A DNA stretch of 39,494 bases from a virus (lineage: Duplodnaviria; Heunggongvirae; Uroviricota; Caudoviricetes). Made by a program: the position numbers and the translations under genes. The notes beneath the pieces are model-generated. The model was given only the letters and a program-made list of their open reading frames with translations. It was not told the DNA's origin and ran no database searches. This document shows positions 1,459 through 10,806 of the stretch, in pieces (position 1 is the first letter of the stretch; each line of letters opens with the position of its first letter). The stretch spans positions 1-39,494 of IMG/VR virus record IMGVR_UViG_2711768073_000020. One strand, written 5' to 3'.

Positions 1459-2622
1459 TTACACATCATTAGTACCTTCCTTATTTTTTGACTGGGACAA
1501 ATTTGGGACCGATGGGTTCAGGATCGAGTCTATTTGCCGTGCGTGTTCGGTAAGGTGATTAGGTGCAAGGTGAGCATATCGACGAACCATTTCGATAGAC
1601 TCCCAGCCTCCCATTTCCTGTAACACTGACAACGGGACTCCGGCTTGAACCAGCCAACTTGCCCAGGTGTGTCTCAAGTCGTGAAATCTGAAATCATCAA
1701 TACCAGCCCGTCTCAGCGCCGCTTTCCAGGCTGTGTTTGCGTCATACCGCATCTTCCTTACTGTTGGCGCTTTCGTTCCGTCTGGTTTGGTACAGCTTTC
1801 CTTGTACACAAATACCCAACGGTGATGATTCCCGATTTGTTTTTTCAATACGCGACATGCAGTATCATTCAGCGCAACGCCAATTGCGCGGTTTGATTTA
1901 CTCTCTTCCGGGTTTATCCATGCCACCCGGCGCTGCATGTCTATTTGTTGCCATTCAAGGTTGATGATGTTCGAGCGTCTTAAGCCTGTTGCCAGTGCAA
2001 ATTCAACAACAGACTTTAATGGCTCCGGACATTCATCAATCAGCCTTTGTGCTTCATGAGGCTCCAGCCAGCGGATACGTTTATTCTTCGGTTGAGGCAC
2101 TTTAAGAATTGGTGCCTTATCCAGCATTTTCCATTCACGCTCTGCGGCTCTTAGCAGGGCCTTTATAAATGAAAGATGCGTAGCCTTCGTTGCAACGGAC
2201 GCTGGTTTTGGCGTGTATTCTGGAACAGGTTTCCCTTTTTTTCTGCATGCTTCTGCCCTGAGTTTCCAGTTTTCCTCATGACGCCGGTTTGTCATTTTCT
2301 GCATCGCTGAATAAATTTTTGATTCAGTGATGTCTCTTAGTTGCATCCCTGCGAAATGTTGAAGCCAGAATCCGATCCGGCTTTTGTCATCGTCCAGTGA
2401 TTTCTTATGTGCTTTCTCTTCGAGCCACCTGACACACGCTTCCTCAAACGTCATATCAGGTATTTCACCAAGTTTGCTGACCCGCCATGCTTCAGCCTTT
2501 AGCTTGTCATGGAGCTCTGTCGCCTGCCTTTTGTCCTTTGTTCCAAGAGACTGTTTAAATCTTTTACCGTTCGGCAATGTGAAACTGGCGTACCATATTT
2601 CACTTCTGCGGAAGAGTGACAT
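1459..2622 (-). CDS. int: Prophage integrase, tyrosine recombinase (P22/SfV-like, thrW-targeting), 387 aa
   Basis: Starts [33 protein letters not shown]; C-terminal catalytic region [39 protein letters not shown] (R-H-R-Y family); stop codon 15 bp downstream of the tRNA 3' end, the classic tRNA-adjacent integrase arrangement. Confidence 0.9.
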
Positions 2623-6492: not shown

Positions 6493-7167
6493 TTAGGCTT
6501 TGATTTTGTATCTTCTTGGTTTTCCTGAGAAAATCACTGTACCAATTATAGAGCAATTACCGTTGATCTTAATGTAAGGCTCAGGCCAGTTTGGGTTTAA
6601 CGCTTTGAGATAACGCTGTGTCCCATCTTCTATCAACCTTTTGAAGGTGGTTTCGCCTGTATCGTGCATCAATGCAATAACGTCGTCACCGTGGCAGGCA
6701 GGTACTTCAGGATCGACAAAAATCATGTCTCCCGGGCGGTACTCATCAATCATTGAATCACCTATCACCCGCAAGATATAAGTCATTTCCCCACAGGGTA
6801 CAGGGCAGGGATACGTTTCTGCTGTGCTCAAATCAACCTCAGAATATCCAACTTCTTTCCATGCTCCGGCCTGTACCCATGATATGACAGGGACTAATGT
6901 GATTTGTTTATTAGTGATTGAAACATCAGGTTTTTTTGTGATGTTCGTTGTCTGGTGTTCTTGATCGAGCCATCCGACAGGCAGGTCGAAACATTTTTCG
7001 ATGTGTCGTGCCATGCTGTCACCGATATTTTTAGTAGCACCATCTCCCATAAACCTGCTGGTCTGGGTTGGCTCGCGATCAATCATAGTGGCAAAGGAAG
7101 AATTCCCGCCAACACCATCTCTCAGTTTTCTGGCGTTAGACCGCCGGATGTCATGGATTGTTTTCAT
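6493..7167 (-). CDS. cI: CI-type prophage repressor (HTH plus S24 LexA-like peptidase domain), 224 aa
   Basis: C-terminal self-cleavage domain with Ser motif (VIGDSMIDEYRPGDMIFVDP) and a downstream Lys (TTFKRL); divergent from a cro-like gene across an operator-rich 90-bp spacer. Confidence 0.85.
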   Translation of the reverse strand: MKTIHDIRRSNARKLRDGVGGNSSFATMIDREPTQTSRFMGDGATKNIGDSMARHIEKCFDLPVGWLDQEHQTTNITKKPDVSITNKQITLVPVISWVQAGAWKEVGYSEVDLSTAETYPCPVPCGEMTYILRVIGDSMIDEYRPGDMIFVDPEVPACHGDDVIALMHDTGETTFKRLIEDGTQRYLKALNPNWPEPYIKINGNCSIIGTVIFSGKPRRYKIKA

Positions 7168-7182
7168 AACGAAATTAAAACC

Positions 7183-7252
7183 CTTGTACCGTTAAGGTAC
7201 AAGTATCTTGAAGGTTCATTTCAATCATGTAATATGTACACCGGAGGTACAT
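7183..7252. promoter_or_regulatory. OR region: two palindromic operators plus candidate PR (-35 TTGAAG 7208-7213, -10 TAATAT 7230-7235)
   Basis: Perfect palindrome CTTGTACC-GTTAA-GGTACAAG (7183-7203) and ATGTACA-CCGGAG-GTACAT (7234-7252) between divergent cI and cro; GGAGG RBS at 7243-7247 before the cro ATG. Confidence 0.55.
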
Positions 7253-7257
7253 ATTGT

Positions 7258-7458
7258 ATGAAAGCGTATTGGGACTCTTTAACCAAAGAACAGCAGGGCG
7301 AGTTGGCCGGAAAAGTTGGCTCAACACCTGGCTACTTACGGCTGGTTTTCAATGGCTATAAAAAAGCCAGTTTTGTGCTGGCTAAAAAACTTGAGCAATG
7401 CACGTCAGGTGCAATTACGAAATCTGACTTAAGACCGGATATCTATCCGAAAGATTAG
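7258..7458 (+). CDS. cro: Cro-like HTH regulator (YdaS/Cro family), 66 aa
   Basis: MKAYWDSLTKEQQGELAGKVGSTPGYLRLVFNGYKK...; GGAGG RBS; divergent from cI. The 167-aa ORF-track version (from 6955) overlaps the cI promoter region and is rejected. Confidence 0.6.
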   Translation: MKAYWDSLTKEQQGELAGKVGSTPGYLRLVFNGYKKASFVLAKKLEQCTSGAITKSDLRPDIYPKD

Positions 7459-7489
7459 CAGAACACTTTCAATTTTTAACCACAGAACG

Positions 7490-8053
7490 ATGAGGCTAAC
7501 CGTGGGTAAGCATCACTGGAAAATAGAAAAACAGCCTGAGTGGTACGTGAAAGCTGTCAGAAAAACTATCGCGGCGTTGCCGGGTGGTTACGCTGAAGCG
7601 GCTGACTGGCTCGATGTAACAGAAAACGCTTTATTCAACCGCCTTCGTGCAGATGGCGATCAGATTTTCCCGCTGGGATGGGCAATGGTTTTACAGCGTG
7701 CTGGTGGCACTCACTTCATTGCTGATGCTGTGGCGCAGTCTGCAAATGGCGTCTTTGTGTCTCTTCCTGACGTCGAGGATGTGGACAACGCCGATATCAA
7801 CCAACGCCTGCTGGAAGTCATTGAACAGATCGGCAGTTATTCAAAACAGATTCGTTCAGCAATTGAAGACGGTGTAGTGGAACCGCATGAGAAGACAGCA
7901 ATTAACGATGAGCTGTACCTCTCAATTTCGAAGCTGCAGGAGCATGCAGCACTGGTCTACAAAATCTTTTGCGTTTCAGAAAGTAGTGACGCCCGCGAGT
8001 GTGCAGCTCCGGGCGCCGTGGCGTGTCGTGACTGTGGAGAAACTAACGCATGA
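7490..8053 (+). CDS. CII-like phage regulatory protein (YdaT/CII-family position), 187 aa
   Basis: Immediately follows cro; alternative GTG start at 7502 has a better RBS (GAGG); C-terminus has a Cys cluster ([14 protein letters not shown]). Confidence 0.45.
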
Positions 8054-8388
8054 ACAGTTTAACAACACACTACCGTCGCTCGCAACTGATTGCGCTTCCT
8101 GTACCGGGTGGAAAAGCGAAGGTGGAGTATTGCTATGCAGTAAATGTACCAGGTGACAGGGAAATTGTAACCCACAGCTTTGCAGAGTGGGCTGTGGGTG
8201 ATTTCAACCGGCAGAAGGAGACAGTCCTTTGCGACAAGTTAACCGCTGGTTCAAAGATCACTACGGAGTGCCCGTCAGAGTCATTCGTTGGGAGCCGGAA
8301 ACACAACGTGTTATCTACCTCCGCGAAGGCTATGAGCATGAGTGCTTCAGCCCGCTCGAACAGTTTCGTCGTAAATTCAGGGAAATAG
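8050..8388 (+). CDS. Hypothetical protein; C-terminal half possibly out of frame (see small ORF 8229..8408)
   Basis: ATGA start coupling with the upstream gene; the N-terminal ~55 aa look protein-like, the C-terminal part is low-complexity Ser-rich ([10 protein letters not shown]) while an alternative frame over the same DNA looks coding. Confidence 0.3.
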
Positions 8389-8408
8389 AGGTCGGTCATG
8401 AGCACTAA
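8229..8408 (+). CDS. Candidate small protein (59 aa, TTG start) not in the ORF track
   Basis: Strong AAGGAG (8215-8220) 8 nt upstream of TTG 8229; translation [59 protein letters not shown] has balanced, protein-like composition; stop overlaps the start of the O-like gene. Confidence 0.35.
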
Positions 8409-9339
8409 ATTAACCGGCTATGTATGGGATGGTTGCGCTGCATCAGGCATGAAATTATCCAGCGTGGCAATTATGGCCCGCCTGGCTGATTTCAGTAATG
8501 ACGAAGGTGTGTGCTGGCCATCAATTGAAACCATTGCCCGCCAGATTGGCGCGGGAATGAGTACCGTCAGAACGGCTATCGCACGGCTGGAAGCAGAAGG
8601 CTGGTTAACGCGTAAGGCGCGTCGCCAGGGTAACCGCAATGCGTCGAATGTTTATCAGCTTAACGTTGCGAAGCTTCAGGCAGCGGCATTTTCTCAACTG
8701 TCAGATTCTGACCCGTCAAAATCTGACGCATCAAAATCTGACCCGTCAAAATTTGATGCGTCGAAATCTGGCAAAAAAGCGGGTTTTCACCCGTCAGAAT
8801 CTGGCGGGGATCCGTCAGTAAAATCAAAACATGATCCGTCAGATAAAAAAACTTCTCGTCCGGACGCTTCGCAACCGGACACGCAGACGGCTGAACAGGA
8901 GTTTTTAACTCGCCATCCTGATGCGGTTGTATTCAGCCCTAAAAAGCGCCAGTGGGGAACGCAGGATGATTTGACCTGCGCACAGTGGCTCTGGAAAAAA
9001 ATCATCGCCCTGTACGAGCAGGCCGCCGAATGTGACGGCGAGGTGGTTCGTCCCAAAGAACCGAACTGGACAGCCTGGGCAAACGAAATTCGCCTGATGT
9101 GTGTGCAGGATGGTCGTACTCATAAACAAATCTGCGAGATGTACAGCCGCGTCAGTCGCGATCCGTTCTGGTGCCGTAACGTGCTCAGCCCGTCGAAGCT
9201 GCGGGAAAAATGGGATGAGCTTTCCCTGCGCTTATCGCCGTCCGTCAGCACGTACACCGAAAAACGCGAAGACCCGTACTTCAAAGCCAGTTACGACAAC
9301 GTGGACTACAGCCAAATCCCGGCAGGATTCAGGGGGTGA
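8398..9339 (+). CDS. Replication initiation protein (lambda O-like: N-terminal HTH DNA-binding domain, iteron-containing linker, C-terminal domain), 313 aa
   Basis: N-terminus SSVAIMARLADFSNDEGVCWPSIETIARQIGAGMSTVRTAIARLEAEGWL (winged-helix initiator type); central repetitive SDSDPSKSDASKSDPSKFDASKS encoded by DNA iterons. Confidence 0.7.
   Translation: MSTKLTGYVWDGCAASGMKLSSVAIMARLADFSNDEGVCWPSIETIARQIGAGMSTVRTAIARLEAEGWLTRKARRQGNRNASNVYQLNVAKLQAAAFSQLSDSDPSKSDASKSDPSKFDASKSGKKAGFHPSESGGDPSVKSKHDPSDKKTSRPDASQPDTQTAEQEFLTRHPDAVVFSPKKRQWGTQDDLTCAQWLWKKIIALYEQAAECDGEVVRPKEPNWTAWANEIRLMCVQDGRTHKQICEMYSRVSRDPFWCRNVLSPSKLREKWDELSLRLSPSVSTYTEKREDPYFKASYDNVDYSQIPAGFRG
8701..8805. repeat. Origin-type iterons: five 15-bp-spaced copies of TCA(A/G)AATCTG(A/G)C plus one more, followed by an A-rich tract
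   Basis: Copies at 8701, 8716, 8731, 8746, 8761 and 8794; AGATAAAAAAAC at 8841-8852; embedded in the initiator gene as in the lambda ori. Confidence 0.6.
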
Positions 9340-9830
9340 GCATGAGTCTTTTGAATGACGTTCAGAAATTCATTGAAGCCCATCCGGGCTGTACTTCCGG
9401 AGATATTGCGGATGCTTTTGCCGGTTACTCACGGCAGCGCGTTCTGCAGTCAGCAAGCAAGTTACGTCAGAGTGGGCGTGTGGCTCACCGTTGTGAAGGA
9501 GATACACGCAGACATTTCCCGCGCCTGACTGAGAGAGCGCAGGAACCGGAACCACAACCAGTTCGTGAAACCAGACCTGTGCGCAATTTCTATGTCGGCA
9601 CTAACGATCCCCGTGTGATTTTGTGCCTGACCCGCCAGGCGGAAGAACTGGAGTCCAGGGGCTTATACCGTCGTGCTGCAACCGTGTGGATGGCGGCATT
9701 CCGTGAAAGCCACTCCCAGCCAGAACGAAACAATTTTCTGGCGCGTCGTGAGCGGTGCTTACGGAAAAGCAGCAAGCGCGCTGCATCGGGTGAAGAGTGG
9801 TATCTGTCAGGGAATTACGTGGGGGCTTAA
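9336..9830 (+). CDS. Hypothetical replication-region protein, 164 aa
   Basis: ATGA overlap with the O-like gene stop; basic C-terminus; not recognisable as lambda P, DnaC or a helicase. Confidence 0.45.
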   Translation: MSMSLLNDVQKFIEAHPGCTSGDIADAFAGYSRQRVLQSASKLRQSGRVAHRCEGDTRRHFPRLTERAQEPEPQPVRETRPVRNFYVGTNDPRVILCLTRQAEELESRGLYRRAATVWMAAFRESHSQPERNNFLARRERCLRKSSKRAASGEEWYLSGNYVGA

Positions 9831-10483
9831 TGAGTAATAAATATTGCCAGGCGCTGGTGGAACTGCGGAACAAACCAGCCCATGAACTGAAGGAAGTGGG
9901 CGATCAGTGGCGCACGCCGGACAACATTTTCTGGGGAATTAACACCCTGTTTGGCCCGTTTGTTCTGGATCTGTTCACTGACGGTGATAACGCCAAATGT
10001 GCCGCGTATTACACGGCGGAAGACAACGCGCTGGCGCATGACTGGTCAGAACGTCTTGCGGAGCTTAAAGGTGCTGCCTTTGGTAATCCCCCATACAGCC
10101 GCGCCAGTCAGCATGAGGGGCAATACATCACCGGCATGCGTTACATCATGAAACATGCCAGTGCCATGCGTGATAAGGGCGGGCGCTATGTTTTCCTGAT
10201 CAAAGCTGCCACCAGCGAAGTGTGGTGGCCGGAAGATGCAGATCATATTGCTTTTATTCGCGGGCGTATTGGTTTTGAACTGCCTGTCTGGTTTATCCCG
10301 AAAGACGAGAAGCAGGTACCGACAGGAGCTTTTTTCGCTGGTGCTATTGCTGTTTTTGACAAGACCTGGAAGGGACCGGCAATCAGCTACATCGGGCGCG
10401 ATGAACTTGAGGCATGTGGTGAGGCGTTTCTGGCGCAGGTTCGCCAGCAGGCAGAAAAACTGGTCAGGGAGATGGCGGCATGA
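9830..10483 (+). CDS. Phage DNA N6-adenine methyltransferase (Dam-like), ~217 aa
   Basis: Catalytic NPPY motif (AFGNPPYS); start ATG 9830 overlaps the upstream stop (TAATG). Confidence 0.8.
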   Translation: MSNKYCQALVELRNKPAHELKEVGDQWRTPDNIFWGINTLFGPFVLDLFTDGDNAKCAAYYTAEDNALAHDWSERLAELKGAAFGNPPYSRASQHEGQYITGMRYIMKHASAMRDKGGRYVFLIKAATSEVWWPEDADHIAFIRGRIGFELPVWFIPKDEKQVPTGAFFAGAIAVFDKTWKGPAISYIGRDELEACGEAFLAQVRQQAEKLVREMAA

Positions 10484-10806
10484 CGACGTTAACTCAATGC
10501 CAGCAGCAGGTGCTGGATATGCTGATTTCTTATCAGAAAGAACGTGGCTTCCCGCCAACCAATCAGGAGGTGGCAACCATGCTGGGATACCGTTCAGTGA
10601 ATGCAGCGGTGGAGCATCTTCGCGCACTGGAGAAAAAAGGCGTCATCACGATAAAGCGTGGCGTGGCCCGGGGGATCACGCTTCATACCGCGGTGAAGGA
10701 CGACGACAGCGAGGCGGTCGGGATTATCCGCTCACTGCTTGCCGGTGAGGAAAACGCAAGGCTGCGTGCAACCCACTGGTTACATGAGAGAGGCCTGAAA
10801 GCATGA
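10480..10806 (+). CDS. LexA N-terminal DNA-binding-domain-like protein (no peptidase domain), 108 aa
   Basis: QQQVLDMLISYQKERGFPPTNQEVATMLGYRSVNAAVEHLRALEKKGVI parallels the LexA winged-HTH N-domain; no Ser/Lys S24 domain follows. Confidence 0.6.
   Translation: MTTLTQCQQQVLDMLISYQKERGFPPTNQEVATMLGYRSVNAAVEHLRALEKKGVITIKRGVARGITLHTAVKDDDSEAVGIIRSLLAGEENARLRATHWLHERGLKA

Follow-up and report, generated by a model that had tools for sequence, protein, structure and literature searches.

Overlapping ymfM and DUF4222 reading frames upstream of the replication-initiator gene in an SfII/e14-like prophage

Introduction

Which protein is encoded between the regulatory gene ymfL and the replication-initiator gene of an SfII/e14-like prophage, and is there only one? 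We consider this question for a stretch of 39,494 nucleotides (nt) of viral DNA (IMG/VR record IMGVR_UViG_2711768073_000020, positions 1 to 39,494; hereafter the window), in which two open reading frames (ORFs) of the plus strand share most of the same bases. The first is ymfM (112 amino acids (aa), a homologue of Escherichia coli K-12 b1148), at 8050..8388, with an ATG at 8050-8052 and a TAG at 8386-8388. The second is a 59-aa ORF at 8229..8408 with a TTG start and a TAA at 8406-8408, and belongs to the Pfam family DUF4222 (PF13973). A first-pass annotation of the sequence alone had pointed out this conflict. It described an ORF at 8050..8388 with an ATGA-coupled start, and a second ORF, preceded by AAGGAG 8 nt before TTG 8229 and extending to 8408, that ends at the start of the O-like gene; both are present exactly as described. 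The second half of the longer ORF is indeed Ser-rich, as was claimed, with 12 Ser among 52 residues vs 3 among the 60 of the first half. Two explanations had been offered: an unannotated small gene with a TTG start, or a single gene that carries a frameshift.

Our analysis points to a third arrangement. We consider it probable that there are two real, overlapping genes here: ymfM, with a domain of about 60 residues followed by an overprinted tail, and an independently initiated DUF4222 gene.

Selected reading frames

The locus was compared with 80 near-identical viral contigs, 46 loci from different Enterobacterales species and phage records. The frame under selection switches at 8229, from ymfM upstream to DUF4222 downstream. 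The 54 haplotypes of the E. coli lineage have 25 variants in 8050-8228, of which 18 leave the ymfM amino acid unchanged. Over 8229-8385, 14 of 16 variants fall at third positions of DUF4222 codons, where they are silent, and are amino-acid-changing in the ymfM frame. The five differences between the window and K-12 show the same switch.

Ratios of nonsynonymous to synonymous substitution rates (dN/dS), obtained from seven relatives that are more distant but have a ymfM N-terminal half of the same type, agree with this pattern. For the N-terminal half, dN/dS is 0.37 in the ymfM frame vs about 1.0 and 1.4 in the other two frames. Over the overlap it is 0.086 in the DUF4222 frame (dS about 1.6), and amino-acid-level constraint on the overprinted ymfM tail was not detected (1.9 in the ymfM frame vs 2.0 in the control frame). 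Codon usage, which the first-pass annotation had suggested scoring in both frames, favours ymfM in 8050-8228 (+0.19 vs -0.47 and -0.74 in the others) and DUF4222 in 8229-8385 (+0.15, with the ymfM frame at about 0 and the third frame at -0.91). It had also been considered that synonymous variation might follow the 8050 frame throughout; it does so only up to 8228. Judged from these substitution patterns, the first half of ymfM (8050..8228, plus strand, about 60 codons) is evidently real coding sequence and the only part of ymfM under amino-acid-level selection, and the residues of the tail are not under selection.

The alignment to relatives, likewise suggested at first pass, shows that this two-frame form, rather than one uninterrupted gene, is the rule across the 46 species-level genomes and the 80 viral contigs. 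It is stable across many Enterobacterales genera.

The DUF4222 gene

We identified a full-length Pfam match for the TTG ORF (67.3 bits against a cut-off of 27, E 8.6e-19), in which residues 2-53 align with positions 3-52 of the 53 in the model. The ORF, described earlier as protein-like, is far beyond what chance would give. RefSeq annotates the protein as WP_001250269.1 at exactly these coordinates in identical E. coli genomes. The suggestion of a small TTG gene is thus sustained as to the gene, but not as to its being unannotated everywhere, as the NCBI pipeline calls a DUF4222 protein in E. coli genomes. Neither YmfM nor the DUF4222 protein is represented by an NCBIfam model.

The Shine-Dalgarno motif AAGGAG (8215..8220, plus strand), 8 nt 5' of TTG 8229, is invariant in the 54 E. 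coli-lineage haplotypes. Across 50 distinct sequence contexts the gene starts with ATG in 45, GTG in four and TTG in one, and a Shine-Dalgarno-like motif precedes the start in 47. The TTG is a feature of the E. coli/Shigella lineage, and nearly all other relatives have ATG. Absence of the start and ribosome binding site in relatives, an outcome that the first-pass annotation had raised against such a gene, is therefore not what we find, since both are conserved. The ORF overlaps the O-like gene by 11 nt, its TAA lying 8 nt past the O-like ATG (8398). In some other phages, DNA similarity sets in at window positions 8214-8236, as at mosaic breakpoints, and these carry the DUF4222 half alone. From these features we conclude that the TTG ORF is a real gene with a predicted initiation site of its own.

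The converse, that the 112-aa ymfM is the sole real gene and DUF4222 a spurious family of alternative-frame translations, is hardly credible. It would fit the K-12 and phage GenBank records, which annotate ymfM only, and a published phenotype that is credited to ymfM. It does not fit the strong constraint on the DUF4222 frame over bases where the ymfM frame is unconstrained. Nor does it fit the stand-alone DUF4222 genes that occur without ymfM, including one in an Elizabethkingia phage, or the AlphaFold2 model of the protein, which is a confident, compact SH3/Tudor-like barrel with a predicted local distance difference test score (pLDDT) of 83.5.

The frameshift explanation can be judged on the same ground. 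It would make the locus one gene, either a decaying pseudogene or one in which a programmed -1 frameshift fuses the ymfM N-terminal half to DUF4222. The two frames do differ by -1, and a few database proteins join the two parts (P0030, P0052, P0059, P0065 and P0090). However, these fusions are rare (1-14 member sequences), differ in their junctions and derive for the most part from raw-read assemblies. Upstream of the DUF4222 start, the same frame meets a stop after 0-39 codons in relatives; the stop lies directly 5' of the ATG in locus L137, and 1-2 codons upstream in L108, L116, L118 and L126. The gene has its own Shine-Dalgarno motif and an ATG or GTG start in 49 of the 50 contexts, no slippery site of the X XXY YYZ form was seen in the open overlap at 8202-8228, and both parts exist as separate genes elsewhere. 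The two-frame arrangement itself persists across many Enterobacterales genera. We rejected the pseudogene form, as single-ORF forms are rare among relatives in which two frames are the rule. A single frameshifted or recoded gene is thus very improbable.

In the minimum free energy fold around the DUF4222 start (8180-8270), the Shine-Dalgarno motif (GAAGGA) is paired, within window positions 8213-8231, to UCCUUU, a stretch that takes in the opening bases of the TTG codon. This fold is not significant (z = -0.70), and the pairing is not conserved in relatives with ATG starts, which differ in sequence there. It hints that, in the E. coli lineage, ribosomes translating ymfM may have to unwind the pairing before DUF4222 can initiate.

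The open ymfM frame across DUF4222

The dual-coding stretch (8229..8385, plus strand) consists of ymfM codons 61-112, which are offset by one base to the right relative to the DUF4222 codons and encode the Ser-rich tail. Among 75 distinct copies in which the two overlap, none has a ymfM-frame stop before offset 157-166; the frame either closes there or continues past it. Only one of the 75 is open in the third sense frame. Three further loci, at about 45% DUF4222 identity, are also open in the ymfM frame.

By synonymous-codon resampling, the probability that the frame would be open is 0.03-0.18 per lineage. Multiplied across 15 lineages with synonymous saturation between every pair (dS>=1), this gives about 1e-18, and restricting the resampling to third positions gives 4e-16; these joint probabilities are rough and assume approximate independence, and five independent lineages alone would give about 1e-5. 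Codon choice within DUF4222 depends on context in the way that stop avoidance in the ymfM frame requires. Of the Val, Leu and Ile codons that stand before an A-initial codon, 0 of 52 end in A or G, vs 29 of 73 of those before C or T (p = 1e-8). Val16 is GTG or GTA only when Arg17 is CGN. After a codon of the form xT[AG], Arg is never encoded by AGR (0/28), vs 31/111 otherwise (p = 6e-4).

Where DUF4222 is not overlapped by ymfM, stops appear. In locus L156, a ymfM N-terminal half of 73 aa is followed by an antirepressor gene and then by DUF4222 standing alone, and this DUF4222 gene has five stops in the ymfM-type frame, at sites avoided elsewhere (GTG AAT, GTG ATA). The frame is closed in three of five stand-alone DUF4222 genes (L156, phiNP and EKP1). 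Selection is thus detectable in both frames over the shared bases, as amino-acid constraint in DUF4222 and stop avoidance in ymfM. These comparisons indicate that evolution keeps both frames open, and the locus is predicted to be a conserved dual-coding overlap. The conflict between the frames noted at first pass is real, but a choice between them is not called for. The low-complexity frame is also kept open by selection, which the first-pass annotation did not foresee.

It could be argued that only DUF4222 is real in 8229-8408, that ymfM is at most a gene of about 60 codons, and that the 52-codon extension is accidental. The tail has no amino-acid constraint, is of low complexity and has low AlphaFold2 confidence. 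RefSeq omits the extension (and also the N-terminal half), the N-terminal half can carry unrelated short tails, and chance alone leaves this frame open in 12.5% of comparable 52-codon windows taken from neighbouring long genes. We nevertheless regard an accidental extension as unlikely. Zero stops in 75 of 75 copies, including the 15 saturated lineages (a product of about 1e-16 to 1e-18), are difficult to reconcile with chance, as is a codon choice that avoids stops according to context. The appearance of stops once DUF4222 is not overlapped, and a first stop fixed 9 nt before the next ATG, also argue against it.

Could the constraint instead come from a gene on the opposite strand? A 90-aa ORF occupies 8133-8405 on the minus strand. 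Its frame is open in 70 of the 75 copies and in 14 of the 15 independent lineages, and it has been annotated once, in phage vB_EcoS-733R5. However, stops in this codon-aligned antisense frame arise only from TTA, CTA or TCA sense codons, so that an openness of 0.57-0.70 is already expected. Once the ymfM frame is required to be open, the expected openness rises to 0.70-0.75 per lineage, and most of what is seen is then a by-product of the ymfM-frame constraint. Conditioning on the antisense frame leaves the ymfM-frame signal unchanged (product 1e-15 to 3e-17), and the antisense frame is closed in at least one lineage. We therefore give an antisense gene as the source of the constraint very little credence.

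Separately, the open frame over DUF4222 in Providencia phage PSTCR8lys (locus L143, 1184-1354) would give a 55-aa peptide with a membrane-helix-like hydrophobic N-terminus (MKMLIISIAFIWISGVFAFASYV...). The peptide may belong to an unrelated overprinted gene, or the frame may be open by chance.

Stop position and proposed translational coupling

The ymfM stop (TAG 8386-8388) abuts a GAGG Shine-Dalgarno motif (8388-8391), and the O-like ATG follows at 8398-8400, in frame with the stop after a 9-nt spacer (8386..8400, plus strand). Of 44 loci, 41 have this 9-nt spacer between the ymfM-frame stop and the next ATG, with replication genes of at least three unrelated types. In the DUF4222 frame, the bases of the stop come from a rare xTA codon (ATA, TTA, GTA or CTA) and the A or G after it. 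The position of the DUF4222 stop is variable, at +10 to +46 relative to the next ATG. In the group with about 45% identity the roles are swapped: here it is the DUF4222 stop that overlaps the ATG, with the ymfM stop 8 nt beyond.

At its upstream end, the ymfL TGA (8051-8053) overlaps the ymfM ATG (8050-8052) as ATGA. Both junctions have the position expected for termination-reinitiation, through the ATGA at ymfL/ymfM and through the conserved 9-nt distance from the ymfM stop to the next ATG. No promoter-like site was found in 7100-8600, and the region thus looks like one operon.

We propose that ymfM starts at ATG 8050, coupled to the ymfL stop, and that its functional part would be the first 60 or so residues. 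The ORF would then run through DUF4222 one base out of register and add a tail of about 52 residues, Ser/Thr-rich and probably disordered, with a sequence dictated by the DUF4222 gene with which it shares 160 bp. DUF4222 would start at its own AAGGAG-TTG, make a conserved 59-residue SH3/Tudor-like barrel protein, and end inside the O-like gene. Both ORFs would be translated. As the tail appears to be selected only for openness and end position, we infer that it is uninterrupted translation of the tail, and not its sequence, that matters. Ribosomes that enter at ymfL/ymfM may in this way reach the replication-gene start and terminate on the Shine-Dalgarno motif of that gene, in a termination-reinitiation coupling. 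Translation of DUF4222 would provide a second, independent ribosome entry that also ends at the replication-gene start. The ymfM tail is thus probably kept open to relay ribosomes to the replication gene, a suggestion drawn from geometry only.

Several observations weigh against the proposal of two genes and a relay. RNA structure at the O-like start (8330-8440) is not significant (z = +1.06). Translation of DUF4222 alone could deliver ribosomes to the O-like start, and the relay does not account for why the ymfM frame must reach it. In the papers searched, we found no direct expression evidence for either product, no frame-specific proteomic data and no ribosome-profiling paper that mentions ymfM, and an SOS multi-omics study reported induction of the ymfM transcript and did not list YmfM protein. 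The lineages are not fully independent, which makes the joint probabilities rough. The distant stand-alone DUF4222 genes of YeP2 and PSTCR8lys have an open frame and no recognisable ymfM N-terminal half. Finally, the openness of the antisense frame in 14 of 15 lineages is above naive expectation, most of it a by-product of the ymfM-frame constraint (P about 0.03-0.05 with 0.70-0.75 expected per lineage).

The ymfM gene and its N-terminal half

The ymfM ATG is preceded at a distance of 10 nt by a GGAG Shine-Dalgarno motif (8036..8039, plus strand). The motif is part of an 18-mer, GGAGAAACTAACGCATGA, that is conserved across genera and occurs 5' of the ymfM-like ATG in many Enterobacterales loci. 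Compared with ymfM of the E. coli K-12 e14 element (b1148), the window gene has 98.6% nucleotide identity, with five differences and three amino-acid changes, all in the tail. The e14 locus has the same neighbours (ymfL upstream and the O-like gene downstream) and contains an identical DUF4222 ORF. By sequence and synteny, ymfM is the orthologue of b1148.

A match to phrog_1170 spans the entire length of ymfM, and database clusters are dominated by the 112-113-aa form. The N-terminal half is also found alone, in proteins of 73-78 aa with unrelated short tails (loci L154 and L156). The AlphaFold2 model of YmfM has pLDDT values of 50-67 in the N-terminal half vs 32-43 for residues 57-112, and with a mean of 47 it was too poor for a fold search. 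We rejected phrog_20047 (63 aa) as a natural truncation of ymfM, as the 63-aa database proteins are frameshifts into the third frame.

A deletion variant is seen in Entomohabitans teleogrylli (L154, 1501-1737). Here the ymfM N-terminal half (78 aa, with a short tail) directly adjoins the O-like gene, and a C-terminal DUF4222 remnant (…HFRERFKRVDR) is all that is left of that gene, in the other frame. Thus, DUF4222 can be lost with the ymfM N-terminal half retained.

Prophage context

The window is an SfII/e14-like lambdoid prophage integrated at thrW. The integration site was recognised because the window begins with host proA-like sequence, a tRNA-Thr(CGT) gene and a minus-strand integrase gene. 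The host proA-like gene (Aldedh family) lies at the start of the window, and the left prophage junction falls within 1-2622, which includes tRNA-Thr(CGT) at 1369-1444 (the thrW site) and the integrase at 1459-2622 (minus strand). The thrW site is the insertion site of Shigella serotype-converting phages such as SfII and SfIV, and these two phages have 98% identity to the window across the region of interest.

A cI/LexA-like repressor gene (6493-7167, minus strand) is followed in the early region by a cro-like gene and then by ymfL, a cII-like regulator (7490..8053, plus strand; Pfam Phage_CP76, E 1.4e-13; NCBIfam phage_reg_YmfL, 169.8 bits), which is annotated by RefSeq with its start at GTG 7502. 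The O-like replication-initiator gene (8398..9339, plus strand) has a Pfam HTH_36 match (E 4e-11) and is annotated in RefSeq and in phage records. It follows both ORFs and is probably coupled to their translation. It contains 4.3 copies of a 15-nt unit, TCTGACCCGTCAAAA, at 8707-8770, which encode SKSD/PSKSD repeats. In sequence, these look like the replication-origin iterons found within an initiator gene, as in lambda O.

The early operon continues with ORFs for a PerC-like protein (9336-9830), a Dam methylase (9797-10483) and a LexA-family protein (10480-10806). The PerC-like and Dam methylase ORFs overlap by 34 nt, and the Dam methylase and LexA-family ORFs by 4 nt. The early operon is densely packed and has overlapping junctions along its whole length.

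Annotation of the locus

Public annotation of the locus is inconsistent. E. coli K-12 MG1655 and phage GenBank records annotate the 112-aa ymfM and not DUF4222, so that K-12 lacks the better-conserved gene. RefSeq genomes lack the N-terminal half of ymfM, leaving 8054-8228 (175 bp; 1655-1829 of locus L001) unannotated despite purifying selection on it. In a few other phage records, DUF4222 is the only one of the two genes to be annotated. Among the records examined, none annotates both.

Comparison with known systems

The TTG ORF has the typical length of the Pfam DUF4222 proteins of phages and prophages and, as in other phages, is placed immediately before a replication-initiator gene. In the window, as in most Enterobacterales relatives, the ymfM ORF overprints it. 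Out-of-frame gene pairs on the same strand are known from lambda (Rz/Rz1) and phiX174 (D/E), where the internal gene has its own start signals and one frame is the most constrained. In both pairs, the two products have demonstrated sequence-dependent functions. In contrast, the ymfM tail appears to be selected only against stops and for stop position, not for its residues, and the present case is known from sequence alone.

The icd gene of phage P1 resembles ymfM in being a small early-operon ORF that is tied to division inhibition and has an ATGA overlap with the next gene. Its translation is annotated as required for expression of the downstream gene ant. P1 Icd gave no BLASTP alignment to YmfM or to the DUF4222 protein at E<=100. 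Icd is under the control of C4 antisense RNA, whereas the window has no C4 or isrK match.

In phages of the SfV/Stx/ST64B/yong2 type (L014, which is SfV, 1349-1630; also L013, L147, L142, L012 and L139), the ymfM-type frame has no stop after DUF4222. It remains open for 600-1000 nt through the Rfam isrK and C4 antisense RNA genes, in frame with the Rha/Ant start (MAT[IV]P...). These long ORFs have been annotated (SfV orf37 is an example), and their Pfam Phage_ASH match coincides exactly with the isrK and C4 RNA region. The Phage_ASH family is either a translation of RNA genes or another frame that is kept open across them.

Implications for SfiC in E. coli K-12

In K-12, b1148 is annotated as cell division inhibitor YmfM and equated with SfiC (Ansari et al., bioRxiv 10.1101/2020.11.19.390815). 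That study expressed "the open reading frame" of ymfM from pBAD24, whereupon cells filamented and lost their FtsZ rings. SOS filamentation was reduced when sulA and ymfM were both deleted, and the authors concluded that ymfM is sfiC. The annotation and that study treat the e14 locus as one 112-aa protein, whereas we read two genes. The pBAD clone of ymfM carries the DUF4222 Shine-Dalgarno motif, start and 53 of 59 codons, i.e., the whole Pfam domain, and the deletion removes DUF4222 as well. Library clones of earlier screens covered the whole region, and the bioRxiv preprint of the ymfM study includes no frame-specific mutant. As clones and deletion carry or remove both frames, the SfiC phenotype cannot yet be assigned to one of them.

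Our literature search found no paper linking ymfM to DUF4222 or to the overlap. Out-of-frame overlapping phage genes are already known as a kind, and this gene pair and the resulting ambiguity over SfiC appear not to have been described before. We offer a more tentative idea, which we consider possible but on balance doubtful: SfiC may be, or may require, the DUF4222 protein, and the ymfM tail may be a sequence-free ribosome relay, kept open only so that translation of the cII-like and ymfM genes is coupled to that of the replication initiator. If true, the SOS-inducible division inhibition of K-12, now assigned to the 112-aa YmfM, would belong to or depend on a hidden protein of the other frame. 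Single synonymous changes can separate the frames, which makes the question directly testable.

The locus was matched in 2701 of 5426 complete E. coli genomes, about half, and includes a named K-12 gene with a published phenotype. The overlap would be a clean natural example of an overprinted frame selected only for openness and for a fixed distance of its stop from the next start. It may thereby offer a tractable case for the study of translational coupling and of the evolution of overlapping genes in temperate phages.

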